DNA of 41,090 nt from the IMG/VR virus record IMGVR_UViG_2563366960_000010; one strand, 5' to 3'. The DNA comes from a virus (lineage: Duplodnaviria > Heunggongvirae > Uroviricota > Caudoviricetes). Positions within the stretch are counted from its first letter, which is position 1, and each line of letters opens with the position of its first letter. The notes below the pieces were generated by a model. The model had not been told where the DNA came from and made no database searches. It saw nothing but the letters and a program-made list of their open reading frames with translations. A program made the translations under genes and the position numbers. Below are positions 8,115-29,303 of this stretch, piece after piece.

Positions 8115-8825
8115 ATGGCTAATGCTCAAACTTCCATCTTCAAATTTGAATCTGTTAACCCTATCCGTTCCATCATTATCGATGGCCAACCATGGTTTGT
8201 AGCCCAAGACGTTTGTAGTGCGCTGCGTATCCAAAACGTCACCCAAGCACTTGAAAAACTGGATGATGATGAAAGGTCTATGTTCAACATAGGGCATGAA
8301 CATCGTGCAATTTTTGACAGCCGAGTAAAAGAGATCAACATCATCTCCGAGTCAGGCCTCTACACACTGATCCTCCGCTGCCGCGACGCAGTGACACCAG
8401 GCACTATCCCCTACCGCTTTCGTAAATGGGTTACGGGTGAGGTTCTTCCTCAGATCCGCCGCACCGGAAGCTACATTAAAAACTCGCTCCCGCAGGAAGA
8501 ACGCATAAAGATGGTTGCCGACCAGGTGGCCAACGCCACGGCGTCAGCAGTAATGCAGGCGATGAAGATAGAGAACAAAACCTACAGCGCCCCACTGAAT
8601 CCCGGCTACCGCAGCCTGATTCATTCGCCGTCTGGTGTTCTCGGCCTGACGGAGAACTCACTGCTGATGAATCTGCTGAACCAGTTACAGGACGACGGGC
8701 ACGACGTATCGGGCGCGGCGGCGGAGCTGACCACCATGTTCTGCTACATCGTCGGTGTGAGCAAATGCCTGCGTGATATCCAGACCCACGCGGAATACAT
8801 CAACGACAAGGCAGGGTTCTTCTGA
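8115..8825 (+). CDS. ant: Antirepressor, Bro-N/KilA-N family N-terminal domain
   Basis: 236 aa from ATG 8115 with SD GGAG; N-terminal Bro-N pattern (IFKFE...IRSIIIDGQPWFVAQDV); C-terminal domain paralogous to the 85-aa ORF. Confidence 0.75.
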   Translation: MANAQTSIFKFESVNPIRSIIIDGQPWFVAQDVCSALRIQNVTQALEKLDDDERSMFNIGHEHRAIFDSRVKEINIISESGLYTLILRCRDAVTPGTIPYRFRKWVTGEVLPQIRRTGSYIKNSLPQEERIKMVADQVANATASAVMQAMKIENKTYSAPLNPGYRSLIHSPSGVLGLTENSLLMNLLNQLQDDGHDVSGAAAELTTMFCYIVGVSKCLRDIQTHAEYINDKAGFF

Positions 8826-8833
8826 CGGGCGGT

Positions 8834-8860
8834 GGCACAGGGATGTGCCTTTAAATAATT
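8834..8860 (+). terminator. Weak terminator-like hairpin after ant
   Basis: Stem GGCACA / TGTGCC then TTTAAATAATT; short T-run, so weak. Confidence 0.3.
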
Positions 8861-8897
8861 CTGTACAGATTGCAGACTGTGGGTGAATAGCGTACTA

Positions 8898-8912
8898 TTA
8901 CCTTAAAGGTAA
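8898..8912. promoter_or_regulatory. Operator-like palindrome TTACCTTAAAGGTAA abutting the SD of the 55-aa gene
   Basis: Perfect copy immediately followed by AGGAGG and ATG 8925. Confidence 0.55.
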
Positions 8913-8924
8913 AGGAGGCGCGAT

Positions 8925-9092
8925 ATGACAGCGTTGAAAAATCGTACTCAGCACAATGAACAAGCCAAGCAATGCTGGGATGTCATTGGAAAAGTTATGC
9001 TTGGCCGCGCAAGCAAAGAGCGCGACAAGGATATGGTTTACCAGACAGGAACATCTTTCAGCGACTTCAAGGCGGCATTTCGCTCCAAATAG
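8925..9092 (+). CDS. Small basic protein (55 aa), first gene of an accessory two-gene cassette
   Basis: ATG with perfect SD AGGAGG at 6-nt spacing; below the 60-aa cutoff of the ORF track; no family recognised. Confidence 0.5.
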   Translation: MTALKNRTQHNEQAKQCWDVIGKVMLGRASKERDKDMVYQTGTSFSDFKAAFRSK

Positions 9093-9112
9093 AAGCACAT
9101 CAGGAGTTTTCC

Positions 9113-9553
9113 TTGAAGTTTAACATTAGAATATCTAATAGTTTTCTACATGGGGAAAGCAACACCCCTTTCGCTGTAGACGGACCTTTCCTTACTGATG
9201 ATGAAATAAAAATCATACAAAGTTTTTTAGAGGATGTTGCCAATGGAAGGGCGCTTGTTGGAAAAAACAAGCCCTCGTGGGTTGATGATAACCATGATAA
9301 AATTCCCGGCTCAGACAATTATGAGCAAGAGAATTATTGGCATTATCATTGTGGGCCAACATGGTATCCAAACACATTTAAGAATTATACCATTAACTTA
9401 AATTTCAACCCTGGCGGAAGGCATTCTAATGAATGCATTCATTATGCAAAAAATGATAATGAAATTGTCATTGTTGGATTTTCAAGAGAACACATACCTT
9501 TCCTTTCATCAGATGGAAACAACAATCCGCTTTTTAATGATGAAGAAGAATAG
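9113..9553 (+). CDS. Hypothetical 146-aa protein in AT-rich cargo region
   Basis: TTG start with SD CAGGAG 6 nt upstream; region markedly AT-rich versus neighbours; Asn/Asp-rich, acidic tail; terminator follows directly. Confidence 0.5.
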   Translation: MKFNIRISNSFLHGESNTPFAVDGPFLTDDEIKIIQSFLEDVANGRALVGKNKPSWVDDNHDKIPGSDNYEQENYWHYHCGPTWYPNTFKNYTINLNFNPGGRHSNECIHYAKNDNEIVIVGFSREHIPFLSSDGNNNPLFNDEEE

Positions 9554-9576
9554 CCCGCGCTGCGGGCTTTTTTGTG
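9554..9576 (+). terminator. Intrinsic terminator after the AT-rich cassette
   Basis: Stem GCCCGC / GCGGGC followed by TTTTTTG immediately after the stop at 9553. Confidence 0.7.
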
Positions 9577-9645
9577 GACGAAACAAAAGTCAGTGCTACA
9601 CTCATTGACGCCACATTGAGGTGGCTTATAGATGGAAATTTCACA

Positions 9646-9807
9646 ATGAAAAAAGCATTTGCTGCACTGTTCGTTTTGTTGTCTCTGGTAGCTTCAACTC
9701 AGGCCTTTGCCGGTCGTTGTCAGCACGACAGCGACACTGCTGCTGACGGCTCCCGCTGCGGTGGGCGTTCTGCGGACTCCCGTCCGGGCGGCGGTGGCAT
9801 TCGTTAA
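9646..9807 (+). CDS. Small secreted Gly/Arg/Asp-rich peptide with two cysteines
   Basis: Signal peptide MKKAFAALFVLLSLVASTQAFA then ~31-aa mature peptide; weak SD; longer track ORF would start at GTG 9574. Confidence 0.45.
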   Translation: MKKAFAALFVLLSLVASTQAFAGRCQHDSDTAADGSRCGGRSADSRPGGGGIR

Positions 9808-9830
9808 AAACAAGGCCGCGAAAGCGGCCT
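9803..9830 (-). terminator. Terminator closing the minus-strand internal virion protein operon
   Basis: Stem GGCCGC / GCGGCC (9813-9830) followed on the minus strand by a U-rich run. Confidence 0.55.
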
Positions 9831-9842
9831 GTGACATGTCAC
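9831..9842. repeat. GTGACATGTCAC palindrome copy 1 (14-mer CGTGACATGTCACA on minus strand)
   Basis: Perfect 12-bp palindrome between convergent genes; same core at 27027 and 29292. Confidence 0.6.
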
Positions 9843-9849
9843 GCTCACG

Positions 9850-9990
9850 TTATGACAAGCCTATGTACCCTGCTACACCAGATAATATCATAATAACTGC
9901 AACAGCAAATTCGCCATCGTCAATGATACATTTACGGTTCATAACGCCAAGTGCAACAAGCGCAAACACAACAAGAATAAAAGCAATCAT
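9850..9990 (-). CDS. Small hydrophobic membrane peptide (46 aa) coupled to the last internal virion protein gene
   Basis: ATG 9 nt after the stop of the 824-aa gene, SD AGGA; two hydrophobic segments; below ORF-track cutoff. Confidence 0.45.
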   Translation of the reverse strand: MIAFILVVFALVALGVMNRKCIIDDGEFAVAVIMILSGVAGYIGLS

Positions 9991-9999
9991 TTCTCATCC

Positions 10000-12474
10000 T
10001 TATTGCGGAGTGACATCCTGTGGTCGCCACCAGTATGTCTGGTTAAACTCTTTCTTCGAACGTTGCTCCATTTTACGCAAATAACCTGGTGAAAAATACT
10101 CCTGCATCTGGTTAAAGATCATGTGATCGAGAGCCGCCTTCAAGTACCAGAGATTCGCACCTGGCATCAGACCTTTCCCCAGCTTAACCAGATCACCACC
10201 AGTCTGCTCACTCTTCCCTTCCACAGCATTTAACGGTATGCCCTGAGCAATCTTCACTACGTCATCAACCAGACCAGCTACCGGGCCAAGCATCGACGCC
10301 AGCGCGCCGCTTCCGTACCTAGTGTGATCTGACAATAAAAAGTCACCGTAAAGGCCAAGACCACCACCTTTCAGTAGAGCACCAAGCCAAAATTTAGCAG
10401 CATCTTCTCCTGTCATCTCGCGAGGATTACGACCAGACGCAAGGTCGTTAAGTTGCTGCGACAAAGCGCCAAGAATGGTCGTACTGGCAATAAACGTCGC
10501 AATATATGCCGCACGCCCACCAGCAGACGGCATACCCATAGCGCGTGACCAGTGACGCATAACCACCGAGATAGGGAACGATTTAAACAGGAAAACACTT
10601 CTCGTTAATTCACCTTTCCATGTTCCACGCTGAATACCAGAACCGGTTATCAGTTGCTCACGTGCTCCCGGTGTAATAACAGCCATATCAACTTCTTCAG
10701 TTACGGCACCGAGCAGTTTACGCATTGCCTCAAATTTCACGCGTTCAGGCTCACCAAGATGTTTAACTGCTGAATCAGGGATACGCATAATGCTTTCCGG
10801 TGTCAGCATCGTATTATTACCGTTCCCCCAGTCCTCCTGTTTCGCCAGCTTCCATACGCTCCAGTCTGTGTCAGTAATCCCTTTGCTTTTCAGGATACGA
10901 AAATCAGAGTCATCGAGGCTACGAAGGTCTGGTGTACGTGACACTACTTCTCCCAGGCTTCCCATCATGGTTACGCCATAGGCGCGCTTGTGCGCATCTG
11001 ACCATGCTGTAAGCCCACTGGCACGCATTACCGCCGTTGCCGCCCAACGAGACACTGACGGCCCCATATTATCCATCGCCCAGCGGTTAACGCTGCCAAG
11101 TAGAGATTCCATCGCCAGACCAGCGCGGCGCGCCCGCGCAAGTTCTGTACGGTTCGTTGGGTCCATAGCTTCAAGCTGGTTGCGGAATAACTGGTTCATT
11201 GGAAGGTTGGTAACCTTCGCAGACAGATACATGGTTCCAAGATCAGAGAACGATGACAGCAACGCGGATCCGAGTCTGCTGGCAACCAGCCAGTTGCGGA
11301 TATTGTCAGACCATCGCGCGATGTGCGGATTCGCTACAGGCTGTGTCTTTCCGGAAATAAAGTTGTACAGATTCTCTGTGTTGTTCGCCAGCCGCTCGAC
11401 TTTACCGGTTTTACTCGGGTTAGCTGTTGCCGTTTCTGCCTTCACCTGATCAAGAAGAGAGCGGAAAACATGATCGGGGTTTGGGCCATATGTTTCCACC
11501 AGTGCAATATCTTTACTGATACCTTCCAGGTGACCGACCATGATTTCCCATAGAGAGCGATCGCCATAAAGTTGCTGATATTGCAGATAGGAATCTGCAT
11601 CTTTGAAATGTATCTGTCGTGATGCATTACCACGGTTAGCACGTGCGCCGGAAATTCGCATTCCGGTATCAGTAAGCTTATTCAGCCCACCAGTAGCGAT
11701 CGTGTTATAAGCCTCTCCAAGAAATGAAGACAACTCGGCATCGTTCATCAGTTGTCCATCGGCTCGGATATAATATTTGCGATCCAGCTTACCTATAACA
11801 TCGCTAACCCACTTATCCTTTGATACTGCCCCAACCTTTTCCATAGAATGATGTTGAGGGATCCCCCAGTTTTCGAGATAGCCAATGTCCCCACCAGCAT
11901 CATTAAACCGGCGGCGCAGCAGCTCTGTAACTTCTCTCCACGCCTTAGCACCGTTTCTTGCTTTAGCATTGCCAGTATTTTGCCCCCGCATTTCATATAC
12001 CAGGTCACGTACGCCCGCTTCATCTTCAAACAGACCAAAAAAGCGAGGATCAACTGCTTCGAATGCCTCCTGCAATTGACTCAATGCATAATCACGGGTG
12101 GCTTTTGTTCTGGATTCAACAGAGAGGAAATTAGATTTACCGTCTGCATTAAAAGCTATAGTACGGTTAAGAGCGCCAAGTTTCCCATCAGCCCCTTGAT
12201 AGCTATTGATAAATTTATCCAATCTCTGACGCGCGGCTATAGTGAGAGCCACACGACGTTTCTTTAATGCCGCTTCTCGCTGTAATTCTTCAGATGCCAA
12301 TTGTGCTGCTCGATATAGCCGCTCTGATTCGGAAAGTTGTCTCCACGACATCGGGTCATCACGAGCAATGGAGCGCATATTTCGATAAATGCGGTCTTCA
12401 ATGTTCTGTATTTCTCGCGCCGTTAACGTGCGCTGCGCCGCCTGCTGGACCGCTTGTATACATTCCTGTCTCAT
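10000..12474 (-). CDS. Internal virion / DNA-ejection protein (C-terminal part of a T7 gp16-like function)
   Basis: 824 aa, follows the 600-aa gene with 5-nt spacing; position and size in T7-like virion module. Confidence 0.55.
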   Translation of the reverse strand: MRQECIQAVQQAAQRTLTAREIQNIEDRIYRNMRSIARDDPMSWRQLSESERLYRAAQLASEELQREAALKKRRVALTIAARQRLDKFINSYQGADGKLGALNRTIAFNADGKSNFLSVESRTKATRDYALSQLQEAFEAVDPRFFGLFEDEAGVRDLVYEMRGQNTGNAKARNGAKAWREVTELLRRRFNDAGGDIGYLENWGIPQHHSMEKVGAVSKDKWVSDVIGKLDRKYYIRADGQLMNDAELSSFLGEAYNTIATGGLNKLTDTGMRISGARANRGNASRQIHFKDADSYLQYQQLYGDRSLWEIMVGHLEGISKDIALVETYGPNPDHVFRSLLDQVKAETATANPSKTGKVERLANNTENLYNFISGKTQPVANPHIARWSDNIRNWLVASRLGSALLSSFSDLGTMYLSAKVTNLPMNQLFRNQLEAMDPTNRTELARARRAGLAMESLLGSVNRWAMDNMGPSVSRWAATAVMRASGLTAWSDAHKRAYGVTMMGSLGEVVSRTPDLRSLDDSDFRILKSKGITDTDWSVWKLAKQEDWGNGNNTMLTPESIMRIPDSAVKHLGEPERVKFEAMRKLLGAVTEEVDMAVITPGAREQLITGSGIQRGTWKGELTRSVFLFKSFPISVVMRHWSRAMGMPSAGGRAAYIATFIASTTILGALSQQLNDLASGRNPREMTGEDAAKFWLGALLKGGGLGLYGDFLLSDHTRYGSGALASMLGPVAGLVDDVVKIAQGIPLNAVEGKSEQTGGDLVKLGKGLMPGANLWYLKAALDHMIFNQMQEYFSPGYLRKMEQRSKKEFNQTYWWRPQDVTPQ

Positions 12475-23795: not shown

Positions 23796-24088
23796 TCCTG
23801 TTCACTGGCCTCTTTGGCCATCTTCAAATACTGTTCAGGGCAATGCGCCATAACGCGCTGAAACAGTTCCAGCGCCAGATTGCGTTGCCCCTCATTAAAT
23901 GCCATTGCCATAGCATCCATCGGAGAGATAGCGGAAAACACCCGGCCTTTCTCCAGCACCGACCAGACAACGCGACGCCCCTGTTCACTGCTCATGACAA
24001 AGCGAATGTCATCAATTTCACGCTGTGCCATGTCACGTTGCTTACGGGCGTTTTCTTCTTTCAGTTGATCGTCTTCGAAATCTGTCAT
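23792..24088 (-). CDS. Small acidic head-assembly-associated protein
   Basis: 98-aa ORF overlapping portal stop and scaffold start. Confidence 0.4.
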   Translation of the reverse strand: MTDFEDDQLKEENARKQRDMAQREIDDIRFVMSSEQGRRVVWSVLEKGRVFSAISPMDAMAMAFNEGQRNLALELFQRVMAHCPEQYLKMAKEASEQE

Positions 24089-27026: not shown

Positions 27027-27038
27027 GTGACATGTCAC
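27027..27038. repeat. GTGACATGTCAC palindrome copy 2 (14-mer CGTGACATGTCACA)
   Basis: Perfect copy 5 nt after the stop of the 110-aa gene, between convergent genes. Confidence 0.6.
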
Positions 27039-27112: not shown

Positions 27113-28588
27113 TTAAGCATAGGGATCGTAATCTGTGATGGCCTTGCCTTGCTGGTTCTGCTGACCGGGAATTCGCAGACGCTTCGACACAGGGAACGCA
27201 AACGTCAGCAGTAGCGCATCGCCTTTACCAGGAGAACGCCCAAGTCGCTCTTTGATATCTTCCTTCGGTTCGATAACGATTTTACCGTCCACTCGAACTT
27301 TGTACTCTGCTGCCGACAGGTCGTCCGCTGTTTCCTGGTCATCCAGCATGCCGCCCAGCCTCAGCCATGTCTTGCATGAATTGAACATCTCCCCACGCTT
27401 GTTGAGCATCTGCGGGTCAGTAGACGCGCCACCGAACGGAACAAGTTGCCATGTACGACCCCATCCGTCACCGATTGACTTCAGACCGGTTCCGTAACCG
27501 AAGTCGATGAACACCGCGTCAGCCTGATACTGGTCTTCAAAGTCAGCGATACGCTTCGCCATAATCAGATCGTCGGTAGTCTTGTTGCCAGTCCACAGCA
27601 CCTTACTGTGTAGCCCCTGCCGCAGGTATATCACCGCGTCATCAACGCCTGAATATGCCGGGTCAACACCGATTATCACCGGAGCATGCGCCACCTGCGC
27701 AGCGGTTACCACCCGTTTCATTGCCTCATCAGTAAGACCGGTAGGGATAAACTGCAATTCAGATGCATCAGGGAATATGCCGCGCACACGGATTTTAACG
27801 AAGTCGCTGTCTTCCCCGTAGTCATCAACCCATTTCTGCAACTGCTGTTTGTTAGTGCCTTCCACCGTTCGGCTGTCAATCTGCGCAGTTTTCCAGCGGT
27901 GTTTATATTTGCGGAAACATTCGCGGAAACGTCCGGTATTACGCGTCGGGTTTCCGAACGCCACCCAGATAATCTCAGTGTCTTCGTCCGTTAGTGCACC
28001 CTCGGCAACTTCCCACACCAGATCCGCAATGTTCGACGCTTCATCGAATACCACGATGATGCGTTTGCGCTCGTTGTGTAGTCCGGCGAATGCCTCAGTG
28101 TTGTGCTCAGACCAGGGGATTGCGTCAGCTCGCCACCGCTTGTCGTGTCCAGGATCATTGCTGTACATCGCGGTAGCGGTACAGGTAAACCAGTCTTTCG
28201 TGATAGCAAGGTTCGACCACTTGATAATTTCCGGCCAGGTCTTCGTTCGTAGCTGGTTGTCGGTGTTGGCGGTCACCACGACCTTACAATCCTCGCAAGT
28301 GGACATGCCCCAGTTGATCAGCATTGAGATGAATGCGGATTTACCAATACCGTGACCCGAAGCACGTGCCAGCATAAGCGGCTGATAGCGCGTCTCTGGA
28401 TTCTGCAGGTGATCACGTATCTCTCGGAACGCATCAGCCTGCCACTGACGTGGGCCGGTAGCATGTGCCAGTTCAGTCCCCTCTTCCCCCCACGGGAACG
28501 CATAGAGGGCATAGCCAAGCGGATCGTGAGTGAACCCTGCAATATCCTCGATCAACTGCTCTTCAGGAGATAACGCTGTATCTGTCAC
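27113..28588 (-). CDS. terL: Terminase large subunit
   Basis: 491 aa, Walker A-like GHGIGKS, acidic nuclease-domain motifs; 4-nt overlap with upstream small terminase gene. Confidence 0.85.
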   Translation of the reverse strand: MTDTALSPEEQLIEDIAGFTHDPLGYALYAFPWGEEGTELAHATGPRQWQADAFREIRDHLQNPETRYQPLMLARASGHGIGKSAFISMLINWGMSTCEDCKVVVTANTDNQLRTKTWPEIIKWSNLAITKDWFTCTATAMYSNDPGHDKRWRADAIPWSEHNTEAFAGLHNERKRIIVVFDEASNIADLVWEVAEGALTDEDTEIIWVAFGNPTRNTGRFRECFRKYKHRWKTAQIDSRTVEGTNKQQLQKWVDDYGEDSDFVKIRVRGIFPDASELQFIPTGLTDEAMKRVVTAAQVAHAPVIIGVDPAYSGVDDAVIYLRQGLHSKVLWTGNKTTDDLIMAKRIADFEDQYQADAVFIDFGYGTGLKSIGDGWGRTWQLVPFGGASTDPQMLNKRGEMFNSCKTWLRLGGMLDDQETADDLSAAEYKVRVDGKIVIEPKEDIKERLGRSPGKGDALLLTFAFPVSKRLRIPGQQNQQGKAITDYDPYA

Positions 28589-29181
28589 TGATTACCATCC
28601 TGACGTTCTTTGAGTCGCTTCCTGGCTGCTGCTATGCGATCAGCAATTGTCACATTCACATTAACATCCAGACGTTCTTTGAACGCGTTGACATCAACAT
28701 GCTTACCAATCAGCTCAAGGTTCTTCACCTTGTCAGGCCATTTAATTTTTTTGAGGATTGTCTCTATCGAATCCTCGTTCATGTTCATGATGGTCGATGA
28801 CAGATCAAAGCCACTAAGCGTAGTGCGCCAGATTTTCGGCCACTCACGGATTGGTTTAAGGCTCCCATCGTCGTTGAGGATGTCGATCACGTCCATCTGG
28901 TCGATCTCCACCAGGCGCATGAGAACGTAATCAGCACTGACGCGCATTCGTTTGTTGCGCTCCTCCATCAACTCGGCAATCCGTTTTTGAATGCGTTCAT
29001 CGCGCATCATGACACTGGCTTTAACTGCCGCTGTATTTGGGGAGAATCCTGCGTTAATCGCTGCCTGAGTCTGGTTTTCAGGCGTTTTGATGTATGACTG
29101 GCAATAAGCCTCCTGCATTGCTGTTAGTGGCTTAAATTGCGTTGATTTGCGTTTATAGGTTTTAGGTTCAGCAGGCATCAT
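28585..29181 (-). CDS. terS: Terminase small subunit
   Basis: Upstream of and overlapping terL; N-terminal HTH-like segment; start taken at ATG 29181, the track ORF extends to a TTG at 29259. Confidence 0.55.
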   Translation of the reverse strand: MMPAEPKTYKRKSTQFKPLTAMQEAYCQSYIKTPENQTQAAINAGFSPNTAAVKASVMMRDERIQKRIAELMEERNKRMRVSADYVLMRLVEIDQMDVIDILNDDGSLKPIREWPKIWRTTLSGFDLSSTIMNMNEDSIETILKKIKWPDKVKNLELIGKHVDVNAFKERLDVNVNVTIADRIAAARKRLKERQDGNQ

Positions 29182-29291
29182 AACCACCGTGGTAATAGTT
29201 ACCGTTGTGGTAATAGTACCATGCAAAATAAAGCCGCCATAGTTGGCGGCAGTATTCAAAACCCATCAAATTCATCATGCATAATCTACTC

Positions 29292-29303
29292 GTGACATGT
29301 CAC
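29292..29303. repeat. GTGACATGTCAC palindrome copy 3 (14-mer CGTGACATGTCACA)
   Basis: Perfect copy overlapping the stop codon of the 115-aa gene, upstream of terS. Confidence 0.6.

Follow-up and report, generated by a model that had tools for sequence, protein, structure and literature searches.

Do the two short open reading frames (ORFs) that face each other at the end of the ejection operon of an Escherichia coli prophage encode proteins and, if they do, what might proteins this small be doing there? We addressed this question in IMG/VR record IMGVR_UViG_2563366960_000010, a stretch of 41,090 nucleotides (nt) that we refer to in its full length as the window and that is a phiV10/epsilon15-like E. 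coli prophage of the genus Uetakevirus. The plus-strand ORF encodes 53 amino acids (aa) and the minus-strand ORF encodes 46 aa. Both are genuine protein-coding genes. Their products are best read as small accessory envelope proteins of epsilon15/phiV10-like prophages, a reading to which we give slightly less than an even chance and in which exclusion is the leading guess. The parts of the locus that matter most to it are the following.

9646..9711, plus strand: predicted signal peptide of the 53-aa protein, residues 1–22, MKKAFAALFVLLSLVASTQAFA, in which the n/h/c-region pattern is kept and the sequence varies
9712..9807, plus strand: mature 31-residue peptide, carrying the conserved motif, and stop codon
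9813..9830, minus strand: intrinsic terminator of the ejection/virion operon, AGGCCGC-TTTC-GCGGCCT followed by TTGTTTTTAAC (terminator scan and fold)
9850..9990, minus strand: 46-aa hairpin peptide with two transmembrane (TM) segments, MIAFILVVFALVALGVM-NRKCIIDDGE-FAVAVIMILSGVAGYIGLS, which is phiV10 gp21 and PHROG 7892
10000..12474, minus strand: gene for an 824-aa virion/ejection protein (PHROG 684, virion structural protein, E = 0)

The ORF at 9646–9807 encodes MKKAFAALFVLLSLVASTQAFA|GRCQHDSDTAADGSRCGGRSADSRPGGGGIR, which has the form of a Sec-type signal followed by a mature part of ~31 residues with two cysteines, and the ORF at 9850–9990 encodes a hydrophobic peptide whose ATG is separated by 9 nt from the TAA of the 824-aa gene; in these respects an earlier note on this DNA had described both products correctly. 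The 46-aa peptide has two hydrophobic segments, joined by the linker NRKCIIDDGE. The earlier note had also called both products unannotated, which they are not, since both are known as hypothetical entries and are catalogued in a common type of E. coli prophage. The 53-aa protein is RefSeq WP_000708858.1 (hypothetical protein) and gp43 of TL-2011b, labeled "putative transmembrane anchored protein" (UniProt A0A0A1A7U0), and the 46-aa peptide is RefSeq WP_001561040.1 (hypothetical protein) and the same protein as phiV10 gp21 (96% identity), labeled "putative integral membrane protein." Both match PHROG families over their entire length, the former PHROG 14503 ("membrane associated protein," moron category; E = 2.3e-40, residues 1–53 of 53) and the latter PHROG 7892 (E = 1.1e-32, residues 1–46 of 46). 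The identical 53-aa sequence is found on at least 1,000 contigs, and its gene is present in 422–469 of 5,426 complete E. coli genomes, at no more than three copies per genome.

Short ORFs are common at this locus, where 52 of at least 20 aa can be counted within 3 kilobases (kb), and we therefore analyzed the sequence evolution of both small ORFs. For the 53-aa gene, sampled from enterobacterial and Tolumonas loci, the pooled ratio of nonsynonymous to synonymous variation (pN/pS) comes to 0.15 for the mature peptide and to 0.36 for the signal peptide, at a pS of ~0.65–0.70; constraint in this protein falls on the mature peptide rather than on the hydrophobic N-terminus. For the 46-aa gene, the 23 distinct intact alleles among 51 IMG/VR loci give a pooled pN/pS of 0.21, and the variable sites are distributed 17/6/27 over the three codon positions. 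The earlier note had named a lack of conservation as ORFs in related sequences among the findings that would refute it; such conservation is what we find.

By inspection, the N-terminus of the 53-aa protein consists of MKK, a 13-residue hydrophobic core (AFAALFVLLSLVA), and STQ-AFA|G with AFA at positions -3/-1, and the lipobox L-x-x-C is not present in the window's own sequence. The protein has the features of a Sec precursor processed by signal peptidase I, and 77 of 93 family members pass a crude rule for such precursors. The N-terminus looks like a cleavable Sec signal peptide in form, and we infer from that form that it is cut. The mature part carries the family motif G-[NR]-C-x6-A-x-D-G-S-R-C-G-G-R-S-A-x-x-R-P-G-G, in which the two cysteines are 12 residues apart and positions C25, A32, G35, S36, C38, R41, R46, G48, and G49 are invariant. 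In the window it comprises 31 residues with a net charge of +1 and 13% hydrophobic residues, and the family medians are 28 residues, a charge of 0, and 14%, with two cysteines in 92 of 93 members. A disulfide between Cys25 and Cys38 is the likely outcome, judging from general rules and from the conservation of both residues. AlphaFold2 with a 93-sequence alignment predicted a defined fold, with a predicted local distance difference test score of 74–84 over residues 21–50; an earlier run with 31 sequences had returned the mature part at low confidence.

The National Center for Biotechnology Information (NCBI) name "transmembrane anchored protein" is attached to 57 close homologs, and it has spread from E. 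coli to Dolichospermum and Mesorhizobium; NCBIfam release 20 contains no model that matches the 53-aa family. The name is likely to mislead because the hydrophobic segment resembles a cleaved signal peptide and not an anchor, and it is probably a propagated misnomer.

The motif is not confined to this phage group. In its broad form, G-N-C-x6-A-x-D-G-S-R-C-G-x-R-[SA]-A-x-x-R-P-G-G, it spans ~27 residues, and its spacing is fixed in 138 of 140 instances. Scanning genomes with A[AS]DGSRCGG returned 48 loci, among them loci in Rhizobiales, Cyanobacteria, Paraburkholderia, Tolumonas, and a metagenome-assembled genome of Polyangiaceae. A profile search recovered 481 representatives at 50% identity, and the wider alignment holds at least 1,231 clusters at 90% identity from Proteobacteria, Cyanobacteria, and Myxococcota. 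The motif occurs in five architectures: as a free protein composed of signal peptide and motif; as a C-terminal tail on lipoprotein-like or larger proteins; between a signal peptide directly before it and a TM helix that leads to a cytoplasmic domain; as tandem copies; and as a longer four-cysteine variant, CxCPYN...GSRCGGRSAYSRPGG..PLCY, that is sometimes C-terminal to an SH3b domain. Searches of Pfam, NCBIfam, the Protein Data Bank (PDB; by sequence and by fold), and the literature returned nothing that matches this family. We read the motif as a very widespread, uncharacterized extracytoplasmic mini-domain.

The genomic neighborhoods of the family are varied. No conserved partner gene was found across the 48 motif loci beyond close relatives; the scattered neighbors include resolvases, an SNase-like gene in Mesorhizobium, and antirepressors in enterics. 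The Paraburkholderia member lies in a lambda-like prophage, and the Mesorhizobium member lies in an ordinary chromosomal region that is apparently non-phage. At seven Mesorhizobium/Rhizobium loci (L020, L021, L026, L028, L029, L033, and L046) the motif forms the tail of a ~110-aa lipoprotein-like protein (LLSGCAADYLN...), and at six of them (all except L026) the next gene comes from one conserved cluster, whose L020 member carries a staphylococcal-nuclease-like domain. The four-cysteine relatives (P0196, P0189, P0210, P0212, P0233, and similar proteins) follow the pattern Y-[SP]-G-x-C-x-C-P-Y-[ND]...G-S-R-C-G-G-R-S-A-Y-S-R-P-G-G-x-x-P-L-C-Y..DV, single or in tandem and once behind a bacterial SH3 domain, and had no match in a Pfam scan. 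Likenesses to the DxDxDGxxCE calcium loop of Excalibur, to the CKPHDC loop of Ivy, and to canonical protease-inhibitor loops were considered and dropped, as none is supported by searches and the residues concerned are not conserved family-wide.

The 53-aa gene is embedded in a compact unit whose signals, upstream of the start codon, are as follows.

9552..9568, plus strand: intrinsic terminator AGCCCGCGCTGCGGGCT followed by TTTTTT at the end of the 146-aa gene (terminator scan; fold of -14.6 kcal/mol)
9575..9602, plus strand: candidate sigma-70 promoter, with TGGACG at 9575–9580, a 16-nt spacer, TG at 9594–9595, and the -10 element TACACT at 9597–9602
9610..9625, plus strand: leader hairpin GCCAC-ATTGAG-GTGGC, 20 nt 5' of the start codon (fold)
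9634–9637, plus strand: Shine-Dalgarno sequence GGAA of the 53-aa gene, downstream of the leader hairpin

The terminator at 9552–9568 insulates the cassette from the upstream gene and has been kept with the cassette in TL-2011b and EC.W1-9 despite a different gene upstream. We infer that TGGACG-N16-TGnTACACT is the promoter of the 53-aa gene, as a promoter-like arrangement, TGGAYG-N16/17-TACAMT, recurs in the alignment and takes the form TGGAYG-N17-TACAAT upstream of the Klebsiella and Buttiauxella homologs. Another candidate, TTGACG-N16-TATAGA (9606–9633), was rejected; it is conserved in near-identical copies only and would leave almost no leader. A consensus 5-bp stem is found for the leader hairpin in 12 gammaproteobacterial loci including Pseudomonas, with compensatory change at three of the five pairs; the stems are GCCAC/GTGGC, GCGCC/GGCGC (GCGCC-N6-GGCGC in Pseudomonas), and GCCGC/GGCGG. 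In family loci (L004–L013, L053, L054, and L107) the hairpin lies ~15–20 nt before the start codon. It could be an mRNA stabilizer or a regulatory site; an Rfam scan of 8800–10100 yielded sub-threshold chance matches only.

At 58%, the guanine-plus-cytosine (GC) content of the cassette exceeds that of the window (49%) and that of the upstream gene (36%). The upstream gene varies between phages, being a YafO-family toxin gene in TL-2011b and in 29 of 80 IMG/VR loci, a DUF2335 gene in a Klebsiella phage, and a PHROG 5954 gene in the window, and the convergent gene facing the cassette also differs. In phiV10 and ten IMG/VR loci only the final 18–22 nt of the 53-aa gene are retained, beside the terminator, and this stub is a deletion scar of the lost gene (stub-only loci: L002/L076 for phiV10, L060–62, L064, L066–67, L069, L074, and L080). 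Its loss from these phages means that phage growth does not require the cassette. In a Pseudomonas prophage, the gene directly after that for a homolog of the 824-aa protein (28% identity, E = 2e-72) is a family member, which is preceded by a leader hairpin and followed by a terminator of its own. Presence in some and absence from others of otherwise near-identical phages, a criterion by which morons are recognized, applies to the cassette. Around the ORF, a terminator lies upstream at 9552–9568 and a hairpin downstream, and the promoter-like element, which is conserved in relatives, falls below the scan threshold. These comparisons of sequences and gene content identify the 53-aa gene as a self-contained, mobile, dispensable cassette.

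On the other strand, the 46-aa gene follows the 824-aa gene, which encodes a homolog of phiV10 gp20, has epsilon15 gp17 as its positional equivalent, and is the third and final large internal/ejection gene of the operon; the three ejection proteins measure 837, 600, and 824 aa. The two genes are joined by a short junction.

9991..10002, minus strand: junction TAA-GGATGAGAA-ATG, comprising the stop codon of the 824-aa gene and a 9-nt spacer, with an AGGA Shine-Dalgarno sequence that overlaps the stop

In 51 IMG/VR loci and 15 phage records the 46-aa gene follows the last ejection gene, and the peptide is at least 74% identical across E. coli, Citrobacter, Salmonella, and Hafnia. In the 51 loci the stop, Shine-Dalgarno sequence, and start of the junction are identical or near-identical, and the terminator always follows the 46-aa gene. 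This geometry suggests that translation of the 46-aa gene is coupled to that of the 824-aa gene. A promoter scan detected no promoter-like site within 500 nt upstream of the 46-aa gene, and the peptide is therefore probably made with the late operon. We considered a class II holin and rejected it; the peptide ends in GYIGLS and has no charged tail, and it matches no holin PHROG or Pfam model. Holin and endolysin genes are annotated elsewhere in epsilon15.

The earlier note had placed the two genes around a shared terminator, and this holds for one strand. The hairpin at 9813–9830 is followed by a T-run on the minus strand only (GGCCGCTTTCGCGGCC-TTGTTTTTAAC), and on its plus-strand side the palindrome GTGACATGTCAC comes next, without a T-run; of the two directions of transcription, only that of the ejection operon thus has a canonical terminator here. 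A terminator is annotated at this site in phiV10 and at the equivalent site in epsilon15.

Do the two genes work together? The full 53-aa gene is present in only 7 of the 51 loci that carry the 46-aa gene and, conversely, of the 80 loci at which the identical 53-aa protein is encoded, 39 adjoin an ejection gene and only 3 of these have the 196-nt arrangement of the window. On these co-occurrence counts we reject a functional pair; the two genes are independent.

The position of the 46-aa gene behaves as a slot that accepts unrelated genes. In phiv142-3 (MN187550; 3750–3923, minus strand) and in Klebsiella phage BUCT711 (4005–4178, minus strand) it holds an unannotated 57-aa two-TM ORF (MFLIILSVII...) together with a 98-aa three-TM protein. 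Spaced just as the 46-aa gene is, the 57-aa ORF starts 9 nt past the stop codon of the 824-aa gene; it has neither similarity to the 46-aa peptide nor a PHROG match. In epsilon15 the slot is occupied by gp18, a 64-aa protein with two TM segments whose gene overlaps the stop of gp17. Among E. coli prophages whose backbones are near-identical, some have a lipoprotein of 137 aa at this site and others a small hydrophobic ORF together with a 138-aa lipoprotein; a 204-aa soluble protein and a 283-aa exported protein are found in a second Klebsiella phage and in EC.W1-9. The gaps at the slot fall into classes of 196, 466, 528, and 636 nt. No similarity was found among the two-TM slot peptides, which belong to different PHROGs or to none. 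Comparison of these sequences indicates that the position of the slot is conserved and its content hypervariable. Because one slot accepts unrelated proteins, the 46-aa gene behaves as an exchangeable accessory gene and not as a fixed virion part.

A further element of the junction lies between the stop codon of the 46-aa gene and the stem of the terminator.

9831..9842, no strand assigned: perfect 12-bp palindrome GTGACATGTCAC

The window contains four copies at up to one mismatch versus 0.13 expected. Three are exact (9831–9842, 27027–27038, and 29292–29303) and one, at 24025–24036, has a single mismatch. Within the late operon the exact copies all lie between genes: one closes the structural operon, one follows an ORF of large-terminase size, and one is just upstream of the ORF at 28585–29259. 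The palindrome also stands at the operon end in epsilon15, phiV10, phiv142-3, BUCT711, and TL-2011b and in nearly all of the 51 IMG/VR loci, regardless of which gene fills the slot. Possible roles are those of an operator, a site of RNA processing, or a mark of module boundaries.

Upstream of the cassette, a Bro-N antirepressor gene (8139–8825) and small uncharacterized genes lie on the plus strand and point toward the 824-aa gene. These include a 55-aa gene at 8925–9092 (PHROG 8607) and the 146-aa gene at 9113–9553 (PHROG 5954), which has a GC content of 35.6% versus 49% for the window. The 146-aa gene is the one replaced in other phages by the YafO-family toxin gene or the DUF2335 gene, and its position is a further variable cargo site. 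Over 9400–10100 the window is 100% identical to the chromosome of E. coli strain 04-00955, and partial matches are found in phiV10, phiv142-3, HEMP4, and Salmonella relatives.

How might these products act? We propose that the 53-aa precursor is exported by Sec and cut after AFA, which would release into the periplasm a near-neutral Gly/Arg/Asp/Ser-rich peptide of ~31 residues folded around the Cys25–Cys38 disulfide. This peptide would bind a conserved envelope component or the periplasm-spanning ejection machinery of an incoming phage and thereby alter the envelope properties of the lysogen, with superinfection exclusion as the leading guess. The 46-aa inner-membrane hairpin peptide would be translated by coupling to the last ejection gene, from a transcript ended by the minus-strand terminator, and would serve as an exchangeable accessory envelope factor, most plausibly in exclusion or envelope modification. 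Superinfection exclusion is favored because the genes adjoin ejection and tailspike genes, because P22 sieA and T4 Spackle offer analogies, and because all alternative occupants of the slot are envelope-targeted; we regard it as the most plausible role for both proteins and, taken as a specific claim, as well short of an even chance. The earlier note had remarked that the membrane peptide sits where immunity or exclusion peptides often occur, and the exchange of unrelated membrane peptides and lipoproteins in the slot lends this indirect support, although PADLOC yields no match.

Several observations weigh against this proposal. Searches of PADLOC, Pfam, NCBIfam, PDB (sequence and fold), and the literature give no function for either protein. 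No PADLOC model matched the 53-, 46-, 146-, 55-, 57-, or 98-aa proteins at E of 0.1 or less; in scans of the peptides, their neighbors, and multi-domain relatives the sole Pfam, NCBIfam, or PADLOC matches were HxsA3 (E = 0.07, non-significant) and DUF5367 (E = 0.025), and the literature searched on the family name, the motif, and epsilon15/phiV10 yielded nothing on what either protein does. Because the motif is also found on chromosomes in surroundings that are apparently not phage-derived, and in cyanobacteria, its basic role may be unconnected with phages. Signal cleavage and the disulfide are deduced from rules and conservation. The candidate promoter of the 53-aa gene is weak and below the scan threshold; it is absent from the scan list because just 8 of 12 consensus positions match. 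Frameshifted or extended alleles of the 46-aa gene occur in 8 of the 51 loci, and selection on it is therefore not absolute. Finally, its missing promoter and its coupling to a late gene fit late lytic expression better than an exclusion function expressed in the lysogen.

Other explanations must be set beside this one. That either ORF, or both, is a reading frame that arose by chance in intergenic DNA around a terminator has next to no probability: short ORFs are indeed abundant at the locus, but pN/pS is well under 1 with near-saturated synonymous change, homologs occur in distant taxa, and both proteins match PHROG families. The earlier note had thought of a secreted signaling or antimicrobial peptide, as a signal peptide followed by a short cysteine-containing mature part might suggest. 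The mature peptide is not antimicrobial-like because its charge is near neutral and its hydrophobic residues are few, in the family medians as much as in the window, and a diffusible signal fits poorly with Sec export, which in a diderm cell stops at the periplasm, and with a neighborhood in which genes for an exporter, an immunity protein, or a receptor were not found. That the motif also exists tethered to membranes and on lipoproteins points instead to action within the envelope. For arbitrium-type signaling in particular, no receptor-like gene is conserved beside the motif gene in the 48 loci, and the neighbors in the window are the Bro-N antirepressor gene and uncharacterized small genes. 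We consider both forms of this idea very improbable.

It is unlikely, though one of the two main rival readings, that the 53-aa product is a periplasmic factor of benefit to the host and unrelated to phage exclusion, with a metal ion, an anion, or a cell-wall component as the ligand of its disulfide loop, and that phages carry it as ordinary lysogenic-conversion cargo. The many non-phage settings of the motif in several phyla, its fusion to SH3b and other extracytoplasmic domains or its tethering to the membrane, and the invariant D, S, R, and R residues with the two cysteines, which are compatible with ligand binding, all speak for such a factor, whereas our searches found no similarity to known binding domains and in Gammaproteobacteria it is specifically the junction of ejection operon and tailspike in epsilon15-like phages, in three genera, at which the motif recurs. 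A bolder form of the exclusion proposal, which strikes us as decidedly unlikely, would make the motif a new broad extracytoplasmic mini-domain with a specific target, the free copy in the periplasm, used by epsilon15-like and other temperate phages, a blocker of trans-envelope ejection machinery or of a conserved envelope machine, and the slot a dedicated exclusion-gene slot in which membrane peptides and lipoproteins are exchanged. As for the 46-aa peptide, tight coupling to the 824-aa gene in a conserved 9-nt geometry, the lack of its own promoter, and the occurrence of a small two-TM peptide at this place in epsilon15, phiV10-type, and phiv142-3-type phages would suit a component of the machinery for ejection or assembly, which would be packaged or would serve the last ejection protein as a membrane chaperone. 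However, the three two-TM peptides are dissimilar though the adjacent 824-aa proteins are near-identical, in other close relatives the first product of the slot is a lipoprotein or a different protein, the Pseudomonas homolog is without such a peptide, and frameshifted variants occur; we judge this role, the other main rival, unlikely. Accessory envelope proteins, with exclusion as the leading guess, remain our preferred reading.

The exported peptide belongs to a large family, with at least 1,231 clusters in several phyla, that lies outside Pfam, NCBIfam, PDB, and the searched literature. Its disulfide loop of 28–31 residues, found from enterobacterial prophages to cyanobacteria, can easily be synthesized for studies of structure, ligand, and phage phenotype. 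The end of the Uetakevirus ejection operon is a hot-swap slot for small envelope proteins, some of whose ORFs are unannotated in deposited genomes, and is a good hunting ground for new exclusion or envelope-modifying factors. In the bolder form of the exclusion proposal, the free periplasmic copy of the motif would establish superinfection-exclusion factors of peptide size as a new class.

The locus can be compared with known systems. Epsilon15 gp18 is the positional equivalent of the 46-aa peptide and is followed by the same palindrome and by a terminator, although it belongs to another PHROG and has no detectable similarity to the peptide. SieA of the temperate podovirus P22 is an inner-membrane superinfection exclusion protein whose gene lies just after ejection gene 16 and beside the antirepressor, and the antirepressor/ejection-gene layout of the window, with Bro-N at 8139–8825, resembles this immI region of P22; SieA is, however, much larger and is expressed in the lysogen, whereas the 46-aa gene has no recognizable promoter, and no sequence relationship was detected between the two. 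T4 Spackle (Sp), which is made with a signal peptide and acts in the periplasm against the tail lysozyme of a superinfecting phage, blocking it, is the working analogy for the 53-aa product as a small, Sec-exported periplasmic phage protein, although Sp is ~3 times larger and searches found no similarity of sequence or fold. Lambdoid morons such as HK97 gp15 and lambda bor/lom are autonomous insertions of promoter, gene, and terminator. Although the 53-aa cassette lies in a podovirus junction region and not in a lambdoid late operon, and its promoter activity is putative, it resembles them in its presence or absence among near-identical phages and in its deviant GC content, and may do so in its flanking terminators and putative promoter.

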